DNA of 64,000 nt. Origin: Candidatus Saccharimonadales bacterium. GTDB taxonomy: Bacteria > Patescibacteriota > Microgenomatia > Levybacterales > UBA12049. This document shows positions 3,716 to 16,502 of the stretch, piece after piece. How positions within the stretch are numbered: the first letter of the stretch is position 1; each line of letters begins with the position of its first letter. The position numbers were made by a program, and so were the translations under genes. The stretch spans positions 864 to 64,863 of the forward strand of contig DATIIS010000030.1 in the NCBI GenBank assembly GCA_035479415.1. Reading direction: 5' to 3'. The notes under the pieces were generated by a model, which had not been told where the DNA came from, made no database searches, and was given only the letters and a program-made list of their open reading frames with translations.

Positions 3716-5293
3716 ATGGTAAGAACACGAATTGCACCAAGCCCGACTGGTAATCCTCATATTGGAACGATTTATCAGGCTCTGTTTGATTATGTTTTTG
3801 CTAGAAAATATGATGGAAAGTTTATATTGCGTATTGAAGACACAGATCGTGTTAGATTGGTAGAAGGAGCAGAGGCGGCAGTACTAGAGGCACTTACATG
3901 GTTTGGTTTAACTCCTAATGAAAGTCCTAATAATCCTGGCGATGTAGGTCCTTATAGACAATCTGAAAGGAAGGAAGCTGGCATATATAAAGAATACATG
4001 TTTGGGCCAAAAGGTTTAGTTAATAGATTCATTCCTACAGATATGCTCCCAGAAACTCAGCGAGAAATAAATAACCAGAATCATTATTGTGCCTATTATT
4101 GCTTTTGTACAAAAGAACGCTTGGATAAAATTCGTTTAGAGCAACAGGCACAAAAAAAAGTTCCTCGATATGATAAATTTTGTTTAAAAATAACTCGTGA
4201 AGAAGCAATTGAAAGAAGTAAAACGGAAGATTTCGTTATTCGTCTTAATATACCGAGAGATTATACAATTGAGTTCGATGATTCTTTTATCGGTAAAATA
4301 AAAGTAACTGGTATTGATGTAGATGATCAAGTTCTTCTAAAATCAGATGGATATCCCACATATCACTTTGGAGTCGTAGTTGATGATCACTTAATGAATA
4401 TAAGTCATGTTTTTAGAGGTAAAGAATGGTTGCCTTCTACACCTAAACATATAATCCTCTACTATTATTTTAATTGGTCAAGACCAATTTATATTCATTT
4501 ACCACTAATTCTAAATAGCGATGGTAAAGGCAAACTCTCTAAAAGACATGGACATTCCTCGGTAAATTATTATAGAGAAGAAGGATATTTACCTCAAGCA
4601 ATTCTCAATTATTTAGCGAATATTGTATGGAATCATCCAGAAGGAAACGAAATTTTTTCTCTAAATGAATTTATAGAAAAACTTCATATAAATAAAATTA
4701 TCGATGCAGAAAAAGTTTACGCAAATACAAATATGGAGCTTAAATCCATTATATCTCTAGCAAATAAATTTGATGAAGAGATAGATCGATTTATTACTTC
4801 TCAGGCTCCACGATTTGATCTTGATAAACTTCAATGGATTAATGGGATCTATATTCGAGAAAAAATGAGTAGTAATGAACTATTAAATACTCTTAAAAAA
4901 TATGAAGAAGATTTTGGTGAAAGCAATTCATCACTAAATCAGATAGATGATAATATTTTATTAAGAATTGTGGAATTAGCTCAACCTAGAATAAATACTC
5001 TTAAAGAATTTTATCCACTGATTACTCAATTTCTTCCCGATGCCAAGTTCTATGTTTCAAATGACGCAGAAAAAGAAATTGCTAAATCACTGCAAGATGC
5101 ATTTGAAAGATTGGATACTTGGAATAAAGATACAATTCTTGAAGTACTTCGAGAAATACTCAAAAAACATAGCATTCGGATGCCAATTTTATATACAATA
5201 GTAACAGGACAGATGAAAGGACTGCCGCTTCCTGAATCCTTGGAAATTCTTGGCAAAGAGACAGTTCTCACACGCCTACAAAAAATTGTGTAG
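3716..5293 (+). CDS. gltX: Glutamyl-tRNA synthetase
   Basis: Class I HIGH motif (SPTGNPHIGT) and KMSKS-like KLSKRHG, with a GluRS-type catalytic core (ILRIEDTD, YPTYHFGVVVDD). Confidence 0.9.
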   Translation: MVRTRIAPSPTGNPHIGTIYQALFDYVFARKYDGKFILRIEDTDRVRLVEGAEAAVLEALTWFGLTPNESPNNPGDVGPYRQSERKEAGIYKEYMFGPKGLVNRFIPTDMLPETQREINNQNHYCAYYCFCTKERLDKIRLEQQAQKKVPRYDKFCLKITREEAIERSKTEDFVIRLNIPRDYTIEFDDSFIGKIKVTGIDVDDQVLLKSDGYPTYHFGVVVDDHLMNISHVFRGKEWLPSTPKHIILYYYFNWSRPIYIHLPLILNSDGKGKLSKRHGHSSVNYYREEGYLPQAILNYLANIVWNHPEGNEIFSLNEFIEKLHINKIIDAEKVYANTNMELKSIISLANKFDEEIDRFITSQAPRFDLDKLQWINGIYIREKMSSNELLNTLKKYEEDFGESNSSLNQIDDNILLRIVELAQPRINTLKEFYPLITQFLPDAKFYVSNDAEKEIAKSLQDAFERLDTWNKDTILEVLREILKKHSIRMPILYTIVTGQMKGLPLPESLEILGKETVLTRLQKIV

Positions 5294-6640: not shown

Positions 6641-6718
6641 CATAGGGACTCCGAAGGAGACTGGTTCGGAGTTACAGTAAATAAGTAGTAGCAGTCATTA
6701 TTGCCGAATCATCTAACG
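6641..6718 (+). repeat. Direct repeat copy 1 (73 nt identical core 6646-6718), ending with the first 17 nt of the tRNA-Gln sequence
   Basis: GGACTCCGAAGGAGACTGGTTCGGAGTTACAGTAAATAAGTAGTAGCAGTCATTATTGCCGAATCATCTAACG is identical to 6760-6832. It contains an 8-bp hairpin ACTCCGAA/TTCGGAGT. Confidence 0.95.
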
Positions 6719-6753
6719 TGGAGGCGACCGAAGGAAGGGCAGCCGAAGGCTGA

Positions 6754-6832
6754 CATAGCGGACTCCGAAGGAGACTGGTTCGGAGTTACAGTAAATAAGT
6801 AGTAGCAGTCATTATTGCCGAATCATCTAACG
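6754..6832 (+). repeat. Direct repeat copy 2 (core 6760-6832), fused to the functional tRNA-Gln
   Basis: Identical 73-nt core offset by 114 nt from copy 1. Identity stops exactly in the tRNA D-loop (after AACG, position 6832). Confidence 0.95.
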
Positions 6833-6886
6833 GTAGGATAGCGGACTCTGAATCCGTTCATCATGGTTCGAATCCATGTTCGGCAG
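6816..6886 (+). tRNA. tRNA-Gln (anticodon CUG)
   Basis: Manual cloverleaf. Acceptor TGCCGAA/TTCGGCA, U8, D-stem ATCT/GGAT with a GG loop. Anticodon stem GCGGA/TCCGT with loop CTCTGAA (U33, CUG, A37). T-arm CATGG-TTCGAAT-CCATG. U1-A72 and G73 as in bacterial tRNA-Gln. CCA is not encoded. Confidence 0.9.
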
Positions 6887-8386
6887 CACATCTGTACGCA
6901 CTTCTGGTTTTAGAAGCACATCATATGGTTTTTTGAAGCTAAAAGTAATCTTTTTATCCTTCAAGAAAAAGTTCTCACCAACCTTTTTAAGTATCCGTTG
7001 TTTTTGTTCTACAGAACCATTATTTATAACTTCACGAATCTGAAAAGCAGTATCAAAGAAGTCTTCAATAAGTTCTAACCAAGTTTTCATAGATGTTTGA
7101 TTATCTTGATATTTATCATCCATGGAAGCTAATTGATCAAGAAGTCGTTGTTTTTGGTCTAAAAACTCATCCTTTGTTAACTCTTCATTAGAACGCATCT
7201 CTACAAGTCTGTTTATCTTATCTCTCAAATTCTTTTGTTGTATTTGAATATATTGAAAATGAGTGTCATTTTTCTTTAATTCATCTTTATACTTTGCCTT
7301 AATAAGCTCTAGTCCTAGTTGCCATACCTCCTTGTCTATTTCTATCTGTAGTATCTGACCATATAGCAACTCCTTAAATTCAGTATCGGTTAAGGATTCC
7401 TCAGTGCAATTACCTTTTCTATGAGTGCAATGATGATAAATAAAATTTTTCCTTTCACCAGTTTTCTTAATCAATTTATCTTTAACAGTGGTTGTAATTG
7501 CACAGCCACAATTTCCGCATTTCATTAACCCTTCAAACTCTCTTTCCCAAGTAATTTTTTTTGGCTTTGATCTATCTTTTAATTTTTCTTGAACTAAATC
7601 AAATAGTCCCTTAGATACAATCCCTTCATGACTGCCTTCAAAGATCTCACCTTTTAAAGTAAAGTAGCCATAATAGACAGGATTGTGCAAAATAATATCA
7701 ATGTGACTTTTAGAAACTCTATTGCCTTTTTTTGTTCTAAGCCCTTCCTCATACATGATGTCTGCAATTTTCCCAAGTGAATAAATGCCAGTTGATGCAA
7801 GCTCAAAAGCTTTTCCAATTAAAGGTGCATAAATAGGATGAGGTTTAATATTTCTTTGCCCCCGCTCACCAAAGCCCTCATAACCTAAAGGAGCAGGCCT
7901 TGGATACTCCTTTCGGTCTACAGCTTTCCTATACAGACCACGTCTAACATTTTGACTCAAGGTACGTGAATATTGATTTGCCATACCGAAATGTATTTGG
8001 AGTATTAAATGATCGCTTTCAGGTGTATACACATCACCTAGAGGAGTTCTAATTTCCTTCAAAACACCATCTTGTAGCAATTGCAAAAGAATACCACCCT
8101 CTTTTGGATTTCTACAAAGCCTATCAGGTTTCCAAGTAAGAATTGCATTTGCTTTTCCTGATTTTATCAACTCTATCATTTGGTTAAACTTTTCGCGTTG
8201 GTCAGGCTTAAATGCACTTTTTTCTTCTTGGAGTTTATATTTAACTTGGAGATGCAATCTGACTTCAACTTCCTCAGACTCTTTATTTTGGTCTTTAATT
8301 GAGGCAACTTGTTTTTCTTTAGATTCAGACGATTTTCGTGAATACCGTATGTAAGTTAAATTATCCATATCAATATTTAATATCAC
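6827..8386 (-). CDS. Large serine recombinase (resolvase/invertase N-domain, recombinase domain, zinc ribbon, coiled coil)
   Basis: N-terminal YIRYSRKSSESKEKQ (catalytic Ser region) and WKPDRLCRN. Zinc ribbon CGNCGC...HHCTHRKGNC, then a Lys/Glu-rich coiled-coil tail. The last ~20 codons are antisense to tRNA-Gln. Confidence 0.85.
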   Translation of the reverse strand: MILNIDMDNLTYIRYSRKSSESKEKQVASIKDQNKESEEVEVRLHLQVKYKLQEEKSAFKPDQREKFNQMIELIKSGKANAILTWKPDRLCRNPKEGGILLQLLQDGVLKEIRTPLGDVYTPESDHLILQIHFGMANQYSRTLSQNVRRGLYRKAVDRKEYPRPAPLGYEGFGERGQRNIKPHPIYAPLIGKAFELASTGIYSLGKIADIMYEEGLRTKKGNRVSKSHIDIILHNPVYYGYFTLKGEIFEGSHEGIVSKGLFDLVQEKLKDRSKPKKITWEREFEGLMKCGNCGCAITTTVKDKLIKKTGERKNFIYHHCTHRKGNCTEESLTDTEFKELLYGQILQIEIDKEVWQLGLELIKAKYKDELKKNDTHFQYIQIQQKNLRDKINRLVEMRSNEELTKDEFLDQKQRLLDQLASMDDKYQDNQTSMKTWLELIEDFFDTAFQIREVINNGSVEQKQRILKKVGENFFLKDKKITFSFKKPYDVLLKPEVRTDVLPNMDSNHDERIQSPLSYR

Positions 8387-8459: not shown

Positions 8460-8936
8460 TTACTTATTTTTTAAAAATGGTAAGGTCTCTCTTATTTCCT
8501 TTATTTTTTGATTTATTCGTTCTTTTTCTTCATCACTCATATTATTATAATTAGTATTATTAACTTTAGTATTATTAGGTGGAACTTTATTGCTTTTATG
8601 AGATGAAATATCTCTCGTAATAGTGGTGAAGTTTTTTTCACTATTGTTACTATCATTAGTGAAAATTTTTTCGTCATTAAATGTATAGAGATTTGATGTT
8701 GAATAACCACGTTTCTTATAATCTATAAAGCCCAATTGCTTTAGTCTTTTAAGATGCATTTGAATAGTTCTTTTCTTTTTACCTCTTAATCTTGCTATAT
8801 GCTCTTGAGAATAGAATATGCTATTGTTGCCAAATCTTAGGGATAATAAAACAAGAAGTGTTACAAGATCACCATCTGAAAGTTGATGGTTTTGAAGCAA
8901 CAAATTAGGTATTTGTGTAAAATTTATCATCTTCAT
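8460..8936 (-). CDS. Winged-helix/HTH protein (DnaD / HTH_36-like, possible replication or regulatory protein of the element)
   Basis: FTQIPNLLLQNHQLSDGDLVTLLVLLSL...EHIARLRGKKKRTIQMHLKRLKQLGFI matches the pattern of phage/plasmid HTH_36-type proteins. Confidence 0.5.
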   Translation of the reverse strand: MKMINFTQIPNLLLQNHQLSDGDLVTLLVLLSLRFGNNSIFYSQEHIARLRGKKKRTIQMHLKRLKQLGFIDYKKRGYSTSNLYTFNDEKIFTNDSNNSEKNFTTITRDISSHKSNKVPPNNTKVNNTNYNNMSDEEKERINQKIKEIRETLPFLKNK

Positions 8937-8953: not shown

Positions 8954-9184
8954 CTAAGAAAAGATTCTTCCTTTTAGCAACTTCATCGTGTTGCTATATT
9001 CTCTTGCGTTAATCATAAGACCTCCAAAAAAGAATTTGTTTGATAATGATTCACAGATATTTTTATTATCAAAAACAAACCAACATATGCCTTGTTCTCT
9101 TTCAATTTTTATTAAACTTTGTCCTTCAACAATTAAGGCTGCTGCTTCTGCAAGATCCTTAGTTCTATAAATATTTTGATTCAT
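8954..9184 (-). CDS. DUF5659-like small protein
   Basis: TKDLAEAAALIVEGQSLIKIERE...WFVFDN...GGLMINAREYSNTMKLLKGRI follows the DUF5659 pattern. The internal ATG (9184) is preferred over the ORF-track start at 9226. Confidence 0.55.
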   Translation of the reverse strand: MNQNIYRTKDLAEAAALIVEGQSLIKIEREQGICWFVFDNKNICESLSNKFFFGGLMINAREYSNTMKLLKGRIFS

Positions 9185-9338
9185 ATTTTTCTTTCCATTT
9201 AAACTTAATGATGTCTTCAATGACAATGGATAAGTTTATTGCAATTTCAAAGATTTCCTGTTCACTGAGAGGCCTTTTATAGCGAGGTTCAAAAATAGTT
9301 TTGATTTTTGTTTTTAAATTTTCATCTAACCATTCCAT
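9165..9338 (-). CDS. Small hypothetical protein (57 aa), below the ORF-track length cutoff
   Basis: Hand translation gives MEWLDENLKTKIKTIFEPRYKRPLSEQEIFEIAINLSIVIEDIIKFKWKEKYESKYL. Its 3' end overlaps the start of the DUF5659-like gene. Confidence 0.3.
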   Translation of the reverse strand: MEWLDENLKTKIKTIFEPRYKRPLSEQEIFEIAINLSIVIEDIIKFKWKEKYESKYL

Positions 9339-9474: not shown

Positions 9475-9948
9475 CTAATCATCCTCAGCAAGCGCTTTTA
9501 ACGCAGCTTCCACAATTGCTGAATCAGTTTTATGAGTAATACTAGTATCAATCTTTTGTACATAATCAAACCCAGCTCTTGATAATAAATCCTTTGCAGC
9601 TGTTATTTGAGATGGCCATGCACCTTTTGCTCTTACTGCTTCATTTAATTTAAGTACAGCATCAACAGCACCATCTTTGACTAATTGGTCAATTCGCTTA
9701 AATTGCTTGGCATACTCTTCTCTATGCTCCTTCATACGGTACTTATATGCCTCATAGAGCCTTCCATTTCTCGTGAACCATGATTTAACCGTTTGGTGCT
9801 CACGCTTTGCTTTAAAGGCAATTGAACGATAGGAGTATCCATGTACAGCCATATCAACATAGAGTTTGTCCTTATCGTCTTCTAGCGAGTCAAAAGCATT
9901 ATATATAGGGCGGTTGATATTGGTTGATTTTGGTAGTTTTGCAGCCAT
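9475..9948 (-). CDS. HTH protein resembling phage terminase small subunit
   Basis: HTH-like GYSYRSIAFKAKREHQTVKSWF and the C-terminal ITAAKDLLSRAGF motif, typical of TerS-type proteins. Weak, pattern-based call. Confidence 0.35.
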   Translation of the reverse strand: MAAKLPKSTNINRPIYNAFDSLEDDKDKLYVDMAVHGYSYRSIAFKAKREHQTVKSWFTRNGRLYEAYKYRMKEHREEYAKQFKRIDQLVKDGAVDAVLKLNEAVRAKGAWPSQITAAKDLLSRAGFDYVQKIDTSITHKTDSAIVEAALKALAEDD

Positions 9949-10086: not shown

Positions 10087-10689
10087 CTACAAATCGTGCT
10101 TTAGTTGCTTAGATGAAAAGAGATATTCCATGTCTCCAGTATTGCCTGCGCTGTTGAAATATGTTCCTTTCAACTTTTTACTTTTACCCGACTCTACATA
10201 CTCAACTTTCGCCGTTCCCAAATGGTTCTTCATTTTTTCTTTGCTTTTAACTGCTATTTCACTGTCGTATGTGTAATAAAGGTATTGATTGTCACCTTCA
10301 TTTCCAAAAGATGCAATAACTTTTTTTGATTTAGATTCAGGAAAATAGGCTCTAAAAGAAATCTTTGAAAAGGTTTGGTCTATCTCCAAAGCACCTGGTA
10401 CTTCGGTATTCAATCCATTCTCCTTATGACTGGAAACGTGCTTACCTTCCCATCTGCCTTCCAAATTAGGTACCGTTACAACGCCAAAAAACCTAAAAAT
10501 GTTAATTTTCCACAAGTATATGTCAAACAAAATAAAGAGCAGTCCATAAATAACTAGAGGGGTTGGTTTATCAATCCACCATGGAAGATTGGGAATATAT
10601 TTATCAAATCCCGCAAGCCAAAGAGAGACAGTAGGTAGTAAGCCTACAAACAAAATTAAATGTGATAATTTTTTTAGGTCAACTCCCAT
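10087..10689 (-). CDS. 2TM plus beta-strand-rich effector (S-2TMbeta / Cap15-like) of a CBASS-like module
   Basis: Two N-terminal TM helices (LILFVGLLPTVSLWLAGF and LVIYGLLFILFDIYLW), then a ~130-aa beta-rich domain (EGRWEGK, ISFRAYF, LYYTYDSE, GTAKVEYV, KGTYFNSAGNTGDMEY). The start codon lies inside the end of the NTase gene. Confidence 0.6.
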   Translation of the reverse strand: MGVDLKKLSHLILFVGLLPTVSLWLAGFDKYIPNLPWWIDKPTPLVIYGLLFILFDIYLWKINIFRFFGVVTVPNLEGRWEGKHVSSHKENGLNTEVPGALEIDQTFSKISFRAYFPESKSKKVIASFGNEGDNQYLYYTYDSEIAVKSKEKMKNHLGTAKVEYVESGKSKKLKGTYFNSAGNTGDMEYLFSSKQLKHDL

Positions 10690-11587
10690 TTTTTACTTTA
10701 TACCATGCATCAGCAAGACGGATAAAGTTTCTGGCTTTCTCTGGTTTCCATTGATGCTGCATTGTGCCAAATAAATGATGCTGGTGACTTACGGTGAAAA
10801 AGGTTGATAAGTTCGGATGGCGTAAAATAAAATCTGTTATATACAAAAATGTTGATTTGTAGTCACCAACAAAAAGATTGTCAGGTACATTATAAATAAG
10901 ACACTCCACTGAATAAGAAGGTACATCTTCCATTTGTATCAAACTCAAATCAGCAAGTTCTCCTCTGATTCTTTTAAATATTCGGACAAAGTCTTTGTAT
11001 TTTCCATATGTTCTATTCTGATGATTTTTCCGAATACCATTCTCTTTATGTATCTTAGGATAGTTTGTCATCATTGTCCCATCAGATGTCCAAAAAGCTA
11101 TACCGCTCACAAAATCCTCTTTATTTAACATAGTAAAACTATTAAAGTTTTTATAGGTTATTGTTGGGACAACATCTGCATTAAGTCTACCAGCATTGCC
11201 TTTTACTTTAATCGCTTTGTTTCCAATATCTACGTTTGCATCTCCAAATTGACGCTTTAGTACGATTCCTACATCTTTTTTGAATAACTCCCACGTATAT
11301 GTAGCCGATGAAGGATATGCTATTTGGTACCACGATTGTTCTAAAGCTGATAAGTGAGATGTTCTTCCGCAAAAAGAGGACGTTAGTTCCAAAACCACAT
11401 CAATATCACTGTCTTCTTTTACATTTGTACTATTGAGATATGAACCTTGCAGATAAGTATCAAATGTTATGTCTGCAAAAGCACTGTTTCCGACTACTGC
11501 ATTTTTAATTTGTTGATATGCTTGCTCAGCACGGGTACTCCCTGGTGGATTTGCCAACCTTAAAAAATCGCTATGAACAAAGGCCAT
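10679..11587 (-). CDS. SMODS / CD-NTase-like nucleotidyltransferase
   Basis: Pol-beta NTase core YLQGSYLNSTNVKEDSDIDVV (GS...DxD), a third acidic strand LNADVVP, and the YSVECLIYNVP helix typical of SMODS/CD-NTases. Confidence 0.65.
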   Translation of the reverse strand: MAFVHSDFLRLANPPGSTRAEQAYQQIKNAVVGNSAFADITFDTYLQGSYLNSTNVKEDSDIDVVLELTSSFCGRTSHLSALEQSWYQIAYPSSATYTWELFKKDVGIVLKRQFGDANVDIGNKAIKVKGNAGRLNADVVPTITYKNFNSFTMLNKEDFVSGIAFWTSDGTMMTNYPKIHKENGIRKNHQNRTYGKYKDFVRIFKRIRGELADLSLIQMEDVPSYSVECLIYNVPDNLFVGDYKSTFLYITDFILRHPNLSTFFTVSHQHHLFGTMQHQWKPEKARNFIRLADAWYKVKNGS

Positions 11588-11692
11588 ATTATCCCAATAA
11601 GCATAGCACTGAATCTATATTAGTCAAATACTTGTGCTTCTAGTTAATAAAAGAGGCCTCAAGGTTAGTATGTACAACTATCTAGGTTAAAT

Positions 11693-12844
11693 TTATTGTT
11701 TACTTTCTTTAGTCAAAAAACTTACTGTGTTCTGGATTTCACTTTCGGATACAAATATTCCCTGAGCGCGAACTGGCTTTTGAAGTTCAGGTTCAAGAAA
11801 AAACATGTCACCTTTTCCAAGCAATCTATCTGTATCTGGAATATCCAAAGAGACACTATAATCTAATTTCCTTGGAAGAAATAAACCAATACGTGCTGGA
11901 ATATTAGATTTTATTTGAGGCGAGAATACCTCTGCATTTGGCTTTTGAGTTGCCAAAATCATATGTACGCCTGCACTATGACCAAGTCGTGTTATACGAA
12001 CAATTGCATCCTCTGCGTTCATGTAGGAGTCCTCTAAAAGTGCTTCCATGTCATCAATCACAGTGACAATATACGGTAATGCTTGGTAACCCATTATTTG
12101 GTTATATGAATCAATATTCCGTACTCCCTTTTCTGCAAAAGTTTTGTGCCGTCTATCTATTTCAGCCATTAACCATTTAAGTGCTGAGAGAATTTTTTCT
12201 GGTGCATTTAATGCAGGAGTCAATAAATGAGGGATACCATTGTAAATAGACATGTCAACATTTTTTGTATCTATAAGAATAAGCTTTACCTCTGTAGGAC
12301 TTGCTCTGAATAGGAGTGATGTAATAAAGGAGTTGATGACAGTTGTTTTTCCTGACCTAGCATTGCCTGCAATAAGAAGGTGAGGTAGTCGTGCTAAGTT
12401 AGTAACTAGAGGAAAACCTACAACATTCAACCCTAAAGGCAATGCAAGCTTTGATTTGGCTTGTTGCATAACTTGCGAAGATAAAACTTGTTTCAGCCTA
12501 ACTAGTTCTGAGGTGATGTTAACAATTTCTAAGCCAATAAGATTTCTCCCAGGAATGGGGGCTTCAATGCGAATTTGTCCAGTTGGAGCTTGTGTAGCTA
12601 AAGCTAAATCACCTGCTAGAGCAGTTACTTCAGAAATGCGAGTGCCAGCAGCGACTTCAATAGCGTATTGCGTAATTGTTGCTCCTAAATTTACTTCTGC
12701 AACCCGAGCCTCTACTCCAAAGCTTTTTAACGTTTTCTCTATTGTTGATGCAATACTCTTAATATCTCCCCGCTGTGCTTTTTCGCCAACAACATCAGAC
12801 AAAAGAGATAACGGAGGGTATTCCCATACAGCTGATTTATCCAT
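11693..12844 (-). CDS. FtsK/SpoIIIE-family ATPase, motor domain only (no TM, no gamma domain)
   Basis: FtsK alpha/beta pattern: PPLSLL..., EVNLGATITQYAIE, Walker A LLIAGNARSGKT, Walker B VTVIDDMEALL, ILATQKPN...IPARIG. 383 aa, ends right after the motor. Confidence 0.75.
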   Translation of the reverse strand: MDKSAVWEYPPLSLLSDVVGEKAQRGDIKSIASTIEKTLKSFGVEARVAEVNLGATITQYAIEVAAGTRISEVTALAGDLALATQAPTGQIRIEAPIPGRNLIGLEIVNITSELVRLKQVLSSQVMQQAKSKLALPLGLNVVGFPLVTNLARLPHLLIAGNARSGKTTVINSFITSLLFRASPTEVKLILIDTKNVDMSIYNGIPHLLTPALNAPEKILSALKWLMAEIDRRHKTFAEKGVRNIDSYNQIMGYQALPYIVTVIDDMEALLEDSYMNAEDAIVRITRLGHSAGVHMILATQKPNAEVFSPQIKSNIPARIGLFLPRKLDYSVSLDIPDTDRLLGKGDMFFLEPELQKPVRAQGIFVSESEIQNTVSFLTKESKQ

Positions 12845-12914
12845 AGTGCAAGTATATCAAAGAGTGAGTAATTTATTGAGAAGTACCTTCTATGGTAGAA
12901 TAATCTTGTAAGAT

Positions 12915-13154
12915 ATGAAACTTTTCAGGTATCGTAAACCGTCTTTGAACACATTACTAGGCGTTACTGCTGCAAAAAGACGATTTAGGAAAGCTGTTGG
13001 CATAAGCACATTTGAGAGATACACAAAACCCTCCAGAATTAAGCAAAGCTTTAAGCAAAAGCTGGGAATATATTCACCTACAATGACCTTAATACGACAA
13101 ACAAGCAAAGGTAATTTCCCAACTTTTTTGGGACTTTTTAAAAAGAGGAAATAA
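12915..13154 (+). CDS. Small basic hypothetical protein
   Basis: 79-aa Lys/Arg-rich ORF, divergent from the FtsK-like gene and preceded by TGGTAGAAT. No family recognised. Confidence 0.35.
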   Translation: MKLFRYRKPSLNTLLGVTAAKRRFRKAVGISTFERYTKPSRIKQSFKQKLGIYSPTMTLIRQTSKGNFPTFLGLFKKRK

Positions 13155-13243
13155 GATAATCAAAATTTCTAGACTTATAAAAAGTTCCTACATAGTCAAT
13201 CAGTGCCAGCAATGAATTTTAGCCTCAAAAATTTTTTACCTTT

Positions 13244-13272
13244 GAGCTCACCGCGAGCGAGGATTCGAACCA
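13244..13272 (-). other. tRNA 3'-end-like fragment (T-loop plus acceptor strand only)
   Basis: The minus strand reads GGTTCGAATCCTCGCTCGCGGTGAGCTC: a canonical T-loop, then 3' T-stem and acceptor-like sequence with no 5' partner. It differs from the tRNA-Gln 3' end. Confidence 0.3.
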
Positions 13273-13333
13273 AACAGATATAAAATATTAAAGCAAAGAA
13301 GAAGTGTATGCTTTCTTGAAGAAACCTGGAGTT

Positions 13334-16058: not shown

Positions 16059-16502
16059 ATGAAGAAAGGAGTTGATTATATTGGTGTTGGAGTGGGTGCT
16101 GCTATCATAGATGATACAGGTAAAATACTTATCACCAAACGCGGCAAAAAAGCAAAAAATGAGCGTGGAAAATGGGAAATTCCCGGTGGGGGAGTTGAGT
16201 TTAATGAGACATTTGAGACTGCTCTCAAGAGAGAGATAAAAGAAGAGCTTGATGTTGAGATTGAAATCTTGGAATTATTAGGAATTTACGATCACATCAT
16301 ACCCGAAGAGAGACAGCATTGGGTTGCGCCAACATATATTTGCAAGCTTGTAAAAGGTATACCCAAAATTCTTGAACCTGAAAAATGTGATGAAATTGGA
16401 TGGTTTACATTGGAAGAAGCTGAAAAATTATCACTTTCGCTCATAACCAAACATGATATTGAACTGTTGAGAAAAAGGTTTCCTATTTACGAGAAAATAT
16501 AG
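16059..16502 (+). CDS. NUDIX hydrolase
   Basis: Nudix box GGGVEFNETFETALKREIKEELDV (Gx5Ex7REUxEExGU). Confidence 0.85.
   Translation: MKKGVDYIGVGVGAAIIDDTGKILITKRGKKAKNERGKWEIPGGGVEFNETFETALKREIKEELDVEIEILELLGIYDHIIPEERQHWVAPTYICKLVKGIPKILEPEKCDEIGWFTLEEAEKLSLSLITKHDIELLRKRFPIYEKI

Follow-up and report, generated by a model that had tools for sequence, protein, structure and literature searches.

The 64,000-nt stretch of DNA analysed here (hereafter the window) belongs to an assembly labelled Candidatus Saccharimonadales bacterium (GCA_035479415.1, contig DATIIS010000030.1, positions 864 to 64,863 of the forward strand). It carries two adjacent minus-strand genes, cdnE and cap15, which encode a clade E cGAS/DncV-like nucleotidyltransferase (CD-NTase) and a Cap15 membrane effector. 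The two genes very probably form a functional operon of a cyclic oligonucleotide-based antiphage signalling system (CBASS), of type I (I-B), acting through abortive infection.

The cdnE-cap15 operon

The 302-aa product of cdnE (10679..11587, minus strand) is a clade E CD-NTase. It matches the PADLOC model for the CBASS oligonucleotide-cyclase, PDLC00788, at 1e-86 (residues 9-295 on profile positions 9-293 of 297), and further PADLOC cyclase models over their full length at 5e-65 and 2e-54. Its best sequence relative in the PDB is RmCdnE (6e0k, 3.8e-46, 35% identity), and every PDB match below 1e-10 is a CdnE enzyme (RmCdnE, EfCdnE, LpCdnE, EmCdnE and ClCdnE). An AlphaFold2 (AF2) model built on 59 homologs, with a mean predicted local distance difference test score (pLDDT) of 92.1, shows the fold. 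Using Foldseek, ranks 1-14 are all taken by CdnE, the first 12 CdnE entries spanning TM-scores of 0.77-0.87 and the RmCdnE c-UMP-AMP synthase scoring 0.84-0.87. CdnD, CdnC, CdnG and cGAS come after these, with TM-scores of about 0.5-0.6 and E-values more than 10 orders weaker than that of the best CdnE. The catalytic residues are likewise in place: YLQGSYLNSTNVKEDSDIDVV contains G48/S49 and D61/D63, LNADVVP contains D138, and the segment YSVECLIYNVP is also present. In the alignment of the 59 homologs Q47-G48-S49-Y50, D61, D63 and D138 are 100% conserved and N175 is 97% conserved, and the catalytic motifs align with those of RmCdnE, EfCdnE and LpCdnE. An identity as an MNT, antibiotic or other minimal nucleotidyltransferase was rejected, as NTP_transf_2 reaches just 14 bits and the strong matches are all CD-NTases.

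The 200-aa product of cap15 (10087..10689, minus strand) is a Cap15/S-2TM-beta protein, with two N-terminal transmembrane helices followed by a C-terminal beta-barrel domain of the cyclic dinucleotide (CDN) receptor type. The Pfam receptor family Cap15_CD_rec is found at residues 72-188 with 66.2 bits against a gathering score of 31.2 (4.3e-18), and the PADLOC CBASS 2TM effector model covers residues 2-197 (8.2e-48). The AF2 model (pLDDT 77.6) places helices at 8-31 and 44-61 and then eight beta-strands; Kyte-Doolittle windows above 1.4 start at 5-12 and 41-53 and coincide with both helices. The sole PDB sequence relative is Cap15 of Yersinia aleksiciae (7n34, 5e-8), and Foldseek returns 7n34 and 7n35 as the only matches with E<1e-3 (probability 1.00, target TM-score 0.71-0.72). 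The two effectors thus share the Pfam receptor domain, the pair of N-terminal helices and a fold over about 123 columns, and differ in sequence, with 24% identity over the barrel. Cap15 proteins, composed of two transmembrane helices and a beta-barrel, sense uracil-containing CDNs, oligomerise and damage the inner membrane (PMC10419184).

The sequence itself shows the layout of the operon. In minus-strand reading the cyclase gene ends AAA AAT GGG AGT TGA and the effector gene begins ATG GGA GTT GAC, giving an 11-nt overlap of stop and start at 10679..10689, through which translational coupling is plausible. In homologous operons the gaps between cyclase and effector are 1-14 nt. As homologs number hundreds for the cyclase and dozens for the effector, with constant gene order and tight spacing, the two are real genes and not chance open reading frames (ORFs).

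Neither Cap2, Cap3, HORMA or TRIP13 nor any other CBASS accessory protein was detected in a PADLOC scan of nine neighbouring proteins or in a Pfam scan of the neighbours. With a cyclase and an effector and no accessory gene among these nine neighbours, the locus classes as type I CBASS and, its effector being a transmembrane protein, as I-B. Its closest counterpart in organisation is the two-gene CdnE03 and Cap15 operon of Staphylococcus schleiferi, a characterised type I-B CBASS in which a clade E CD-NTase is again followed by Cap15 with no accessory genes (Banh et al. 2023, PMC10686824); Cap15 also accompanies EfCdnE, LpCdnE and ClCdnE (PMC10442399). Unlike the S. schleiferi system, the operon in the window sits in a bacterium of the candidate phyla radiation (CPR) and on a serine-integrase element. 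Membership in two related systems was rejected. DS-2 (DefensePredictor) is a CBASS variant whose CD-NTase is modelled by NF053871 and whose partners are a phospholipase and a diadenylate cyclase (PMC13092281). NF053871 (DS2_2_antiphage) is the best NCBIfam model for the cyclase and covers its full length, yet scores 236.7 bits against an equivalog cut-off of 350, and no phospholipase or diadenylate cyclase was found among the neighbours by Pfam or PADLOC. Panoptes (OptS/OptE) has an mCpol synthase, and the partner here is a CD-NTase.

The initial annotation of this locus had anticipated most of the above. It had given two minus-strand ORFs with an 11-nt overlap, exact in every coordinate, and had recognised the SMODS/CD-NTase pattern with its pol-beta core, the two transmembrane helices and beta-rich domain of an S-2TMbeta/Cap15 effector, and a type I system without accessory genes, all of which agree with the motifs, profiles and folds found. 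It had also named a grouping of the cyclase with MNT or antibiotic nucleotidyltransferases as evidence that would speak against it; the cyclase groups with CdnE. The structure comparison which it had proposed led from the cyclase model to CdnE and from the effector model to 7n34/7n35. The profile searches which it had proposed gave a divided result, with PADLOC recognising both proteins and Pfam Cap15_CD_rec the effector, and with Pfam SMODS and Cap15_TM remaining below threshold.

Predicted signal, mechanism and alternative readings

In characterised CdnE enzymes an Asn of lid 1 (N166 in RmCdnE) selects a uracil acceptor, and a clamp of Glu and (R/Q)xW keeps all but pyrimidines out of the donor pocket; RmCdnE has C252 and E265 at the clamp positions, and its pocket admits adenine (PMC10442399). 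The equivalent positions of the cyclase in the window, taken from HMMER alignments, are N175 (aligned with Rm N166), T265 (with Ef E267, Lp E262 and Rm C252), H278 (with Ef R279 and Rm E265) and W280 (with Ef W281). The 59 family members have T or C at position 265 and W, E, T or H at position 278, and none of them carries the Glu-Arg clamp pair. Because lid 1 carries Asn175 and the Glu-Arg/Gln clamp is absent (Thr265/His278), the product is predicted to be a uracil-containing, purine-tolerant CDN resembling cUMP-AMP. Such a predicted product fits a Cap15 that senses uracil. The initial annotation had regarded both signal and trigger as unknown; for the signal, the specificity residues now point to a uracil-containing CDN.

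RmCdnE, the c-UMP-AMP synthase (6E0K/6E0L), is the best relative of the cyclase in the window in both sequence and structure, with the same catalytic motifs, the same lid 1 Asn (N166/N175), an open donor pocket free of a Glu-Arg clamp, and a QW in the C-terminal loop that the cyclase in the window retains. The two enzymes differ in overall sequence, in the clamp positions, which are Cys/Glu in RmCdnE and Thr/His in the window, and in the N-terminal helix, which in the window lacks Trp11. The di-pyrimidine synthases EfCdnE, LpCdnE and ClCdnE resemble it in their type I operons with Cap15, their lid 1 Asn and their C-terminal-loop Trp, and are set apart by the Glu and (R/Q)xW clamp that excludes purines (PMC10442399). 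As the cyclase in the window has Thr265 and His278 at these positions, a strict di-pyrimidine product is not predicted. By comparison of published descriptions, Ssc-CdnE03 makes cGAMP upon binding CBASS-activating bacteriophage RNA (cabRNA), whereas the lid residues in the window predict a product that contains uracil.

The protein identities and folds, the conserved catalytic residues, the operon layout without accessory genes and the insertion beside tRNA-Gln are shown by the analysis, while what triggers the system, which nucleotide it makes, its positive (ligand-activated) mode and its anti-phage role in this host are inferred. In the mechanism proposed, CdnE would be inactive until phage infection. 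The trigger would possibly be a phage-derived structured RNA, by analogy with Ssc-CdnE03 (PMC10686824), in which RNA-binding lysines lie in the N-terminal region; as a clue to the trigger in the window, RNA sensing by CdnE03 is a lead only. Once active, the GS...DxD...D pol-beta site of CdnE would cyclise two NTPs into a CDN, which would bind the cytoplasmic beta-barrel of the co-translated Cap15. Cap15 would then oligomerise via its two transmembrane helices and permeabilise the membrane, and the infected cell would die before phage release. Abortive infection through membrane disruption is the outcome in the S. schleiferi system, and the same is proposed, by analogy, for the operon in the window.

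Several points weigh against this reading. No phage of the source organism is known to us. On the cyclase Pfam SMODS reaches 21.4 bits against a gathering score of 26.5, on the effector Pfam Cap15_TM reaches 19.5 against 28.2, and no NCBIfam model is passed by either protein, so that the identity assignment rests on the PADLOC models, the PDB relatives and the fold. The cyclase is at most 43% identical to any database protein and 35% identical to RmCdnE. The prediction of the product transfers three positions from other enzymes, and at one of them, two residues before the Trp, His278 occurs only once among the 59 family members. Compared with these homologs, the N-terminal helix is atypical at near-invariant positions, with D7 (Gln in 92%), F8 (Leu in 95%), R10 (Thr in 81%) and L11 (Trp in 98%); the protein in the window is the sole one of the 59 without Trp11, which RmCdnE also has. 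Given W11L and Q7D, the regulation or activity of the cyclase could differ from that of its relatives. Finally, S-2TM-beta effectors are also capable of inverse signalling, as in Panoptes (PMC12657218), and sequence cannot separate the two modes.

The divergent helix raises the question of whether the operon is a relic, recently acquired and inactive in its host. W11L and Q7D fall on near-invariant positions and are unique in the family, and even the nearest cyclase homolog is only 43% identical, as a relic might have it. Against this, both ORFs are intact and full length relative to the profiles, the catalytic residues are all retained, as is nearly all of the conserved core, the start/stop overlap is preserved and AF2 confidence is high, which makes a non-functional operon improbable.

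Inverse signalling is rated lower again, as very unlikely. Here a CDN made constitutively would keep the Cap15-like effector off, and phage sponges or nucleases that deplete the CDN would free it. OptE of Panoptes is itself an S-2TM-beta homolog of Cap15 with the opposite ligand logic, for which 'subtle differences' are thought decisive (PMC12657218), and the sequence searches made here do not distinguish the two modes. However, Panoptes is defined by its mCpol synthase and the synthase here is a clade E CD-NTase, the characterised CdnE and Cap15 operons signal positively (PMC10686824), and no second CBASS that such a system could guard was found by PADLOC among the nine neighbouring proteins. 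Positive signalling by an orthodox CBASS accordingly remains the preferred reading.

Insertion at tRNA-Gln and recurrence of the pair

The operon lies in a block of eight co-directional minus-strand genes between 6.8 and 12.8 kb, an element of about 6.4 kb. Its left end adjoins a tRNA-Gln(CUG) gene of the host (6816..6887, plus strand; ARAGORN, Rfam 57.8 bits), which marks the left island junction. At this end stands a large serine recombinase (LSR), the putative integrase (6827..8386, minus strand), with Resolvase PF00239 at 1.6e-15, Recombinase PF07508 at 6.8e-17 and phrog_95 at 7e-63; its Zn_ribbon_recom PF13408 match (3.3e-4) is below the gathering score.

Insertion next to the tRNA is shown by comparison with related loci. 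The left flank, peptidase S11 - hypothetical - GltX - PAP2 - DAGK, is kept in several relatives, and in four of these (L011, L012, L013 and L016) DAGK is followed by the same tRNA-Gln(CUG), the island genes being absent from these loci. Integrase homologs of 86% (L041) and 62% (L042) identity occupy the same tRNA-Gln site, with 3' ends overlapping the antisense tRNA by about 60 nt as in the window, and a 66% homolog (L043) overlaps tRNA-Gln(UUG). L042 shares with the window the two small ORFs beside the integrase; its cargo is different and includes no CBASS. In an alignment of the tRNA region the sequence 3' of the tRNA is conserved among island-bearing loci alone, which puts the left junction at or within the tRNA 3' end, whereas the tRNA sequence follows the relatedness of the hosts. 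Members of the integrase family occur widely in CPR metagenome-assembled genomes (MAGs), including Curtissbacteria, Pacebacteria, Microgenomates and Patescibacteria. These comparisons indicate that the CBASS pair is cargo of an integrative element inserted at the 3' end of tRNA-Gln.

The association appears to be a recurrent one. A metagenome scan with the effector alignment gave 53 loci; wherever the effector was at least 41% identical and there was room upstream of it, the gene directly upstream encoded a CdnE homolog. Five of the pair-bearing loci also hold a distantly related serine recombinase (25-31% identical), the end of which abuts or overlaps an antisense tRNA in 4 of the 5 (tRNA-Leu in L045, tRNA-Ile in L054, tRNA-Tyr in L057 and tRNA-Asn in L060). 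On this basis CdnE-Cap15 is, as far as the comparison of loci indicates, recurrent cargo of tRNA-targeting serine-integrase elements. The unit also occurs without a recombinase within 8 kb, in a Microgenomates MAG, with LexA and housekeeping genes as its neighbours, and in a Minisyncoccia MAG (L034 and L037). The least probable of the alternatives, that the pair is a selfish stabilisation or competition module that kills on loss of the element or on entry of a rival rather than defending the host against phage, could draw on this repeated cargo status beside recombinases in several loci, and is considered most unlikely because defence cargo on mobile elements is the norm, antitoxin-like logic is absent, both proteins are orthodox CBASS components and the pair is also chromosomal in L034 and L037.

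The setting described by the initial annotation, a recombinase-bearing island next to a tRNA in a CPR-like genome, is thus real, the island being absent from syntenic relatives, and its view of the pair as borne by a mobile element is strengthened by the recurrence beside tRNA-abutting recombinases. It had also considered that the pair might be a set of core genes shared by related genomes, which is not so: the island genes are absent from the syntenic loci, and the nearest homologs are just 43% (cyclase) and 50% (effector) identical, so that the pair is not a conserved core gene set of a sequenced clade. A phage origin was looked for by tblastn of the cyclase against 50,697 GenBank phage records, with no match. 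Each of the two CBASS proteins does have a match among PHROG families without known function (phrog_18746, 6e-58; phrog_23442, 5.5e-25), from which it follows that related pairs occur in (pro)viral sequence.

The host itself is a deep-branching CPR lineage. Identical proteins are found on an NCBI MAG, GCA_964464865.1, also labelled Candidatus Saccharimonadales bacterium. Among 185,579 GTDB species representatives the nearest GltX is about 46% identical, and all informatively titled GltX matches are Patescibacteria (Levyibacteriota, Microgenomates, Roizmanbacteria and Parcubacteria). The MAG is labelled Saccharimonadales, yet the relatives in GltX, synteny and integrase are in Microgenomatia-type MAGs (Levyibacteriota, Roizmanbacteria, Microgenomates and Curtissbacteria), and the class-level placement of the source MAG within the CPR may need checking. 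An episymbiotic lifestyle is assumed.

The locus is an orthodox CdnE-Cap15 CBASS, divergent and from an under-sampled phylum, and is not a new kind of system. The initial annotation had called it unusual, which was an overstatement, since the pair is present in the other CPR MAGs mentioned above (Microgenomates and Minisyncoccia) and CdnE with Cap15 has already been characterised (PMC10686824). Surveys of the CPR defensome already exist (PMC12259885); the literature searched on CBASS in CPR, Patescibacteria and Saccharibacteria yielded such general surveys only, and no description of a CdnE-Cap15 pair in CPR was found. The understanding of CBASS is left unchanged, and standard defence-finder pipelines would annotate the locus automatically. 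What the locus adds is an intact example of nucleotide-second-messenger abortive infection in CPR together with its vehicle, a small serine-integrase element at tRNA-Gln. The genomes of CPR bacteria are tiny and each encodes few defence systems; a record of the systems that are retained, and of the vehicles by which they travel, contributes to understanding the phage pressure that episymbionts face. Together with its Cap15, the divergent CdnE could also widen the set of characterised uracil-CDN signalling pairs.

Island genes and boundaries

Between the integrase and the CBASS operon the island carries, all on the minus strand, a replication-initiator-like or DnaD-like helix-turn-helix protein (8460..8936; Pfam HTH_36 1.8e-8, and phrog_270, phrog_186 and phrog_428 at 1e-11 to 1e-13), two small backbone ORFs of about 76-90 aa and 57 aa (8954..9338), and a 157-aa putative DNA-binding regulator (9475..9948), the last with weak matches to the phrog_323 D5-like transcriptional regulator (1.8e-4) and the Terminase_5 helix-turn-helix (0.07). 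The small ORFs have homologs of 44-52% identity next to the L042 integrase, and received no family assignment in the PADLOC and PHROG scans. Upstream of cdnE, in a gap of 105 nt, a consensus scan finds a promoter-like site (TTGACT-16-TG-TATGCT, 11600..11627, minus strand), which is weak and position-based, the regional count of such sites being not above chance.

Beyond this gap lies a 383-aa motor-only FtsK/SpoIIIE-like ATPase (11693..12844, minus strand; FtsK_SpoIIIE 4e-46, FtsK_alpha 4e-22, phrog_1358 6.5e-75), which probably belongs to the island. It has alpha and beta domains and no N-terminal transmembrane segments, and the NCBIfam models FtsK, EssC and TraB are all far below their cut-offs (TraB at 36 bits against 800). 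In this layout it recalls the single-protein DNA translocases of actinomycete integrative conjugative elements (AICEs), although the match to TraB is very weak. The protein also matches the C-terminal parts of PADLOC SspH models at 7e-40.

In general build the island resembles other LSR elements (phage-type LSR integrases, SCCmec Ccr, XisF), with a Resolvase, Recombinase and Zn-ribbon integrase at one end of a site-specific cargo island. It differs in that the CPR integrase family consistently ends over an antisense tRNA gene, and in that no NCBIfam recombinase equivalog comes near its cut-off. In the integrated state the antisense strand of tRNA-Gln provides the final ~20 codons of the integrase together with its stop TAG, which derives from the D-loop CTAACG read in antisense, and the same is seen in three independent genomes (6827-6887 in the window, 1611-1671 in L041 and 11485-11545 in L042). 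As the C-terminus of the integrated form is supplied by the host tRNA, it would differ in the excised form. It can be suggested, tentatively and as a doubtful extension, that these islands represent an undescribed family of miniature tRNA-targeting serine-integrase elements in CPR, with an integrase ORF completed by the antisense tRNA, a Rep-like gene and, here, an FtsK-like motor, which would carry defence genes, CdnE-Cap15 among them, from one CPR lineage to another. Were this true, the motor could possibly drive an AICE-like transfer of double-stranded DNA between cells.

In the comparison with empty sites the nearest GTDB representatives keep the left-flank synteny and the right flank is not syntenic (GltX ~46% identical), so that the left junction alone could be set; no close relative with an unoccupied site was found. 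No direct repeat of the 3' or 5' part of tRNA-Gln that could be an att duplicate is present in the window at up to 3 mismatches. Candidates for the right end include the 490-bp gap at 12845-13333, a tRNA-like fragment within it, and the end of a Logan contig from the same sample at 13207, the last two giving a candidate right end at about 13207-13272. The fragment (13245..13272, minus strand), identified by reading of the sequence as a T-arm and acceptor strand of a tRNA 3' part, consists of GGTTCGAATCC and an acceptor-like strand and forms a 19-nt inverted repeat (I24) of 84% with the T-arm of tRNA-Gln. L060, which is also an element with tRNA, serine recombinase and CBASS, has a comparable inverted fragment immediately past cap15 (~8485-8510, minus strand). 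Neither fragment is called as a tRNA by ARAGORN or Rfam, and the one in the window could be an att half-site. As a general marker of the distal end the fragment was rejected, being present in the window and L060 only and absent in L042, L045, L054 and L057. Logan contig breaks were also rejected as a sign of heterogeneity between island and empty site: the 73-nt repeat described below accounts for the break at 6675, and although no repeat accounts for the one at 13207, this is weak evidence, as Logan contigs also break inside island genes (L008).

Immediately to the left of the tRNA there is a perfect 73-nt direct repeat (6646-6718 and 6760-6832) with a 41-nt spacer (6719-6759). Each copy ends with the first 17 nt of tRNA-Gln, and a CCGAAGG motif occurs three times in the spacer and repeat. 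In L041 a promoter-like TTTTAGTA.AATAGCTTCATT directly precedes the tRNA, without the ~170-nt insert of the window. The repeat could be a real duplication, a scar of an earlier integration or an artefact of joining. The NCBI contigs CAYXGX010000004 and CAYXGX010000002 end at positions 6718 and 6834 of the window, flanking the second copy, and both lack the spacer and that copy, so that the window is not one single NCBI contig. Because the public contigs break at this repeat, the adjacency of tRNA and integrase in this genome rests on the assembly of the window; the identical arrangement in L041 and L042 gives it independent support.

Two further observations concern genes flanking the island. 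GltX of the window (3716-5293) is about 49% identical to that of L041 (2948-4336), whereas identity between the two loci is 80% for DAGK, 72% for PAP2, 64% for peptidase S11 and 86% for the integrase; the glutamyl-tRNA synthetase gene beside the tRNA-Gln site may thus have been replaced or have diverged unusually fast. About 3 kb beyond the island a 147-aa NUDIX protein (16059-16502, plus strand) matches the PADLOC candidate defence family PDC-S07 at 3.1e-24, and a homolog of 73% identity is found in the Levyibacteriota locus L012 (2920-3342).

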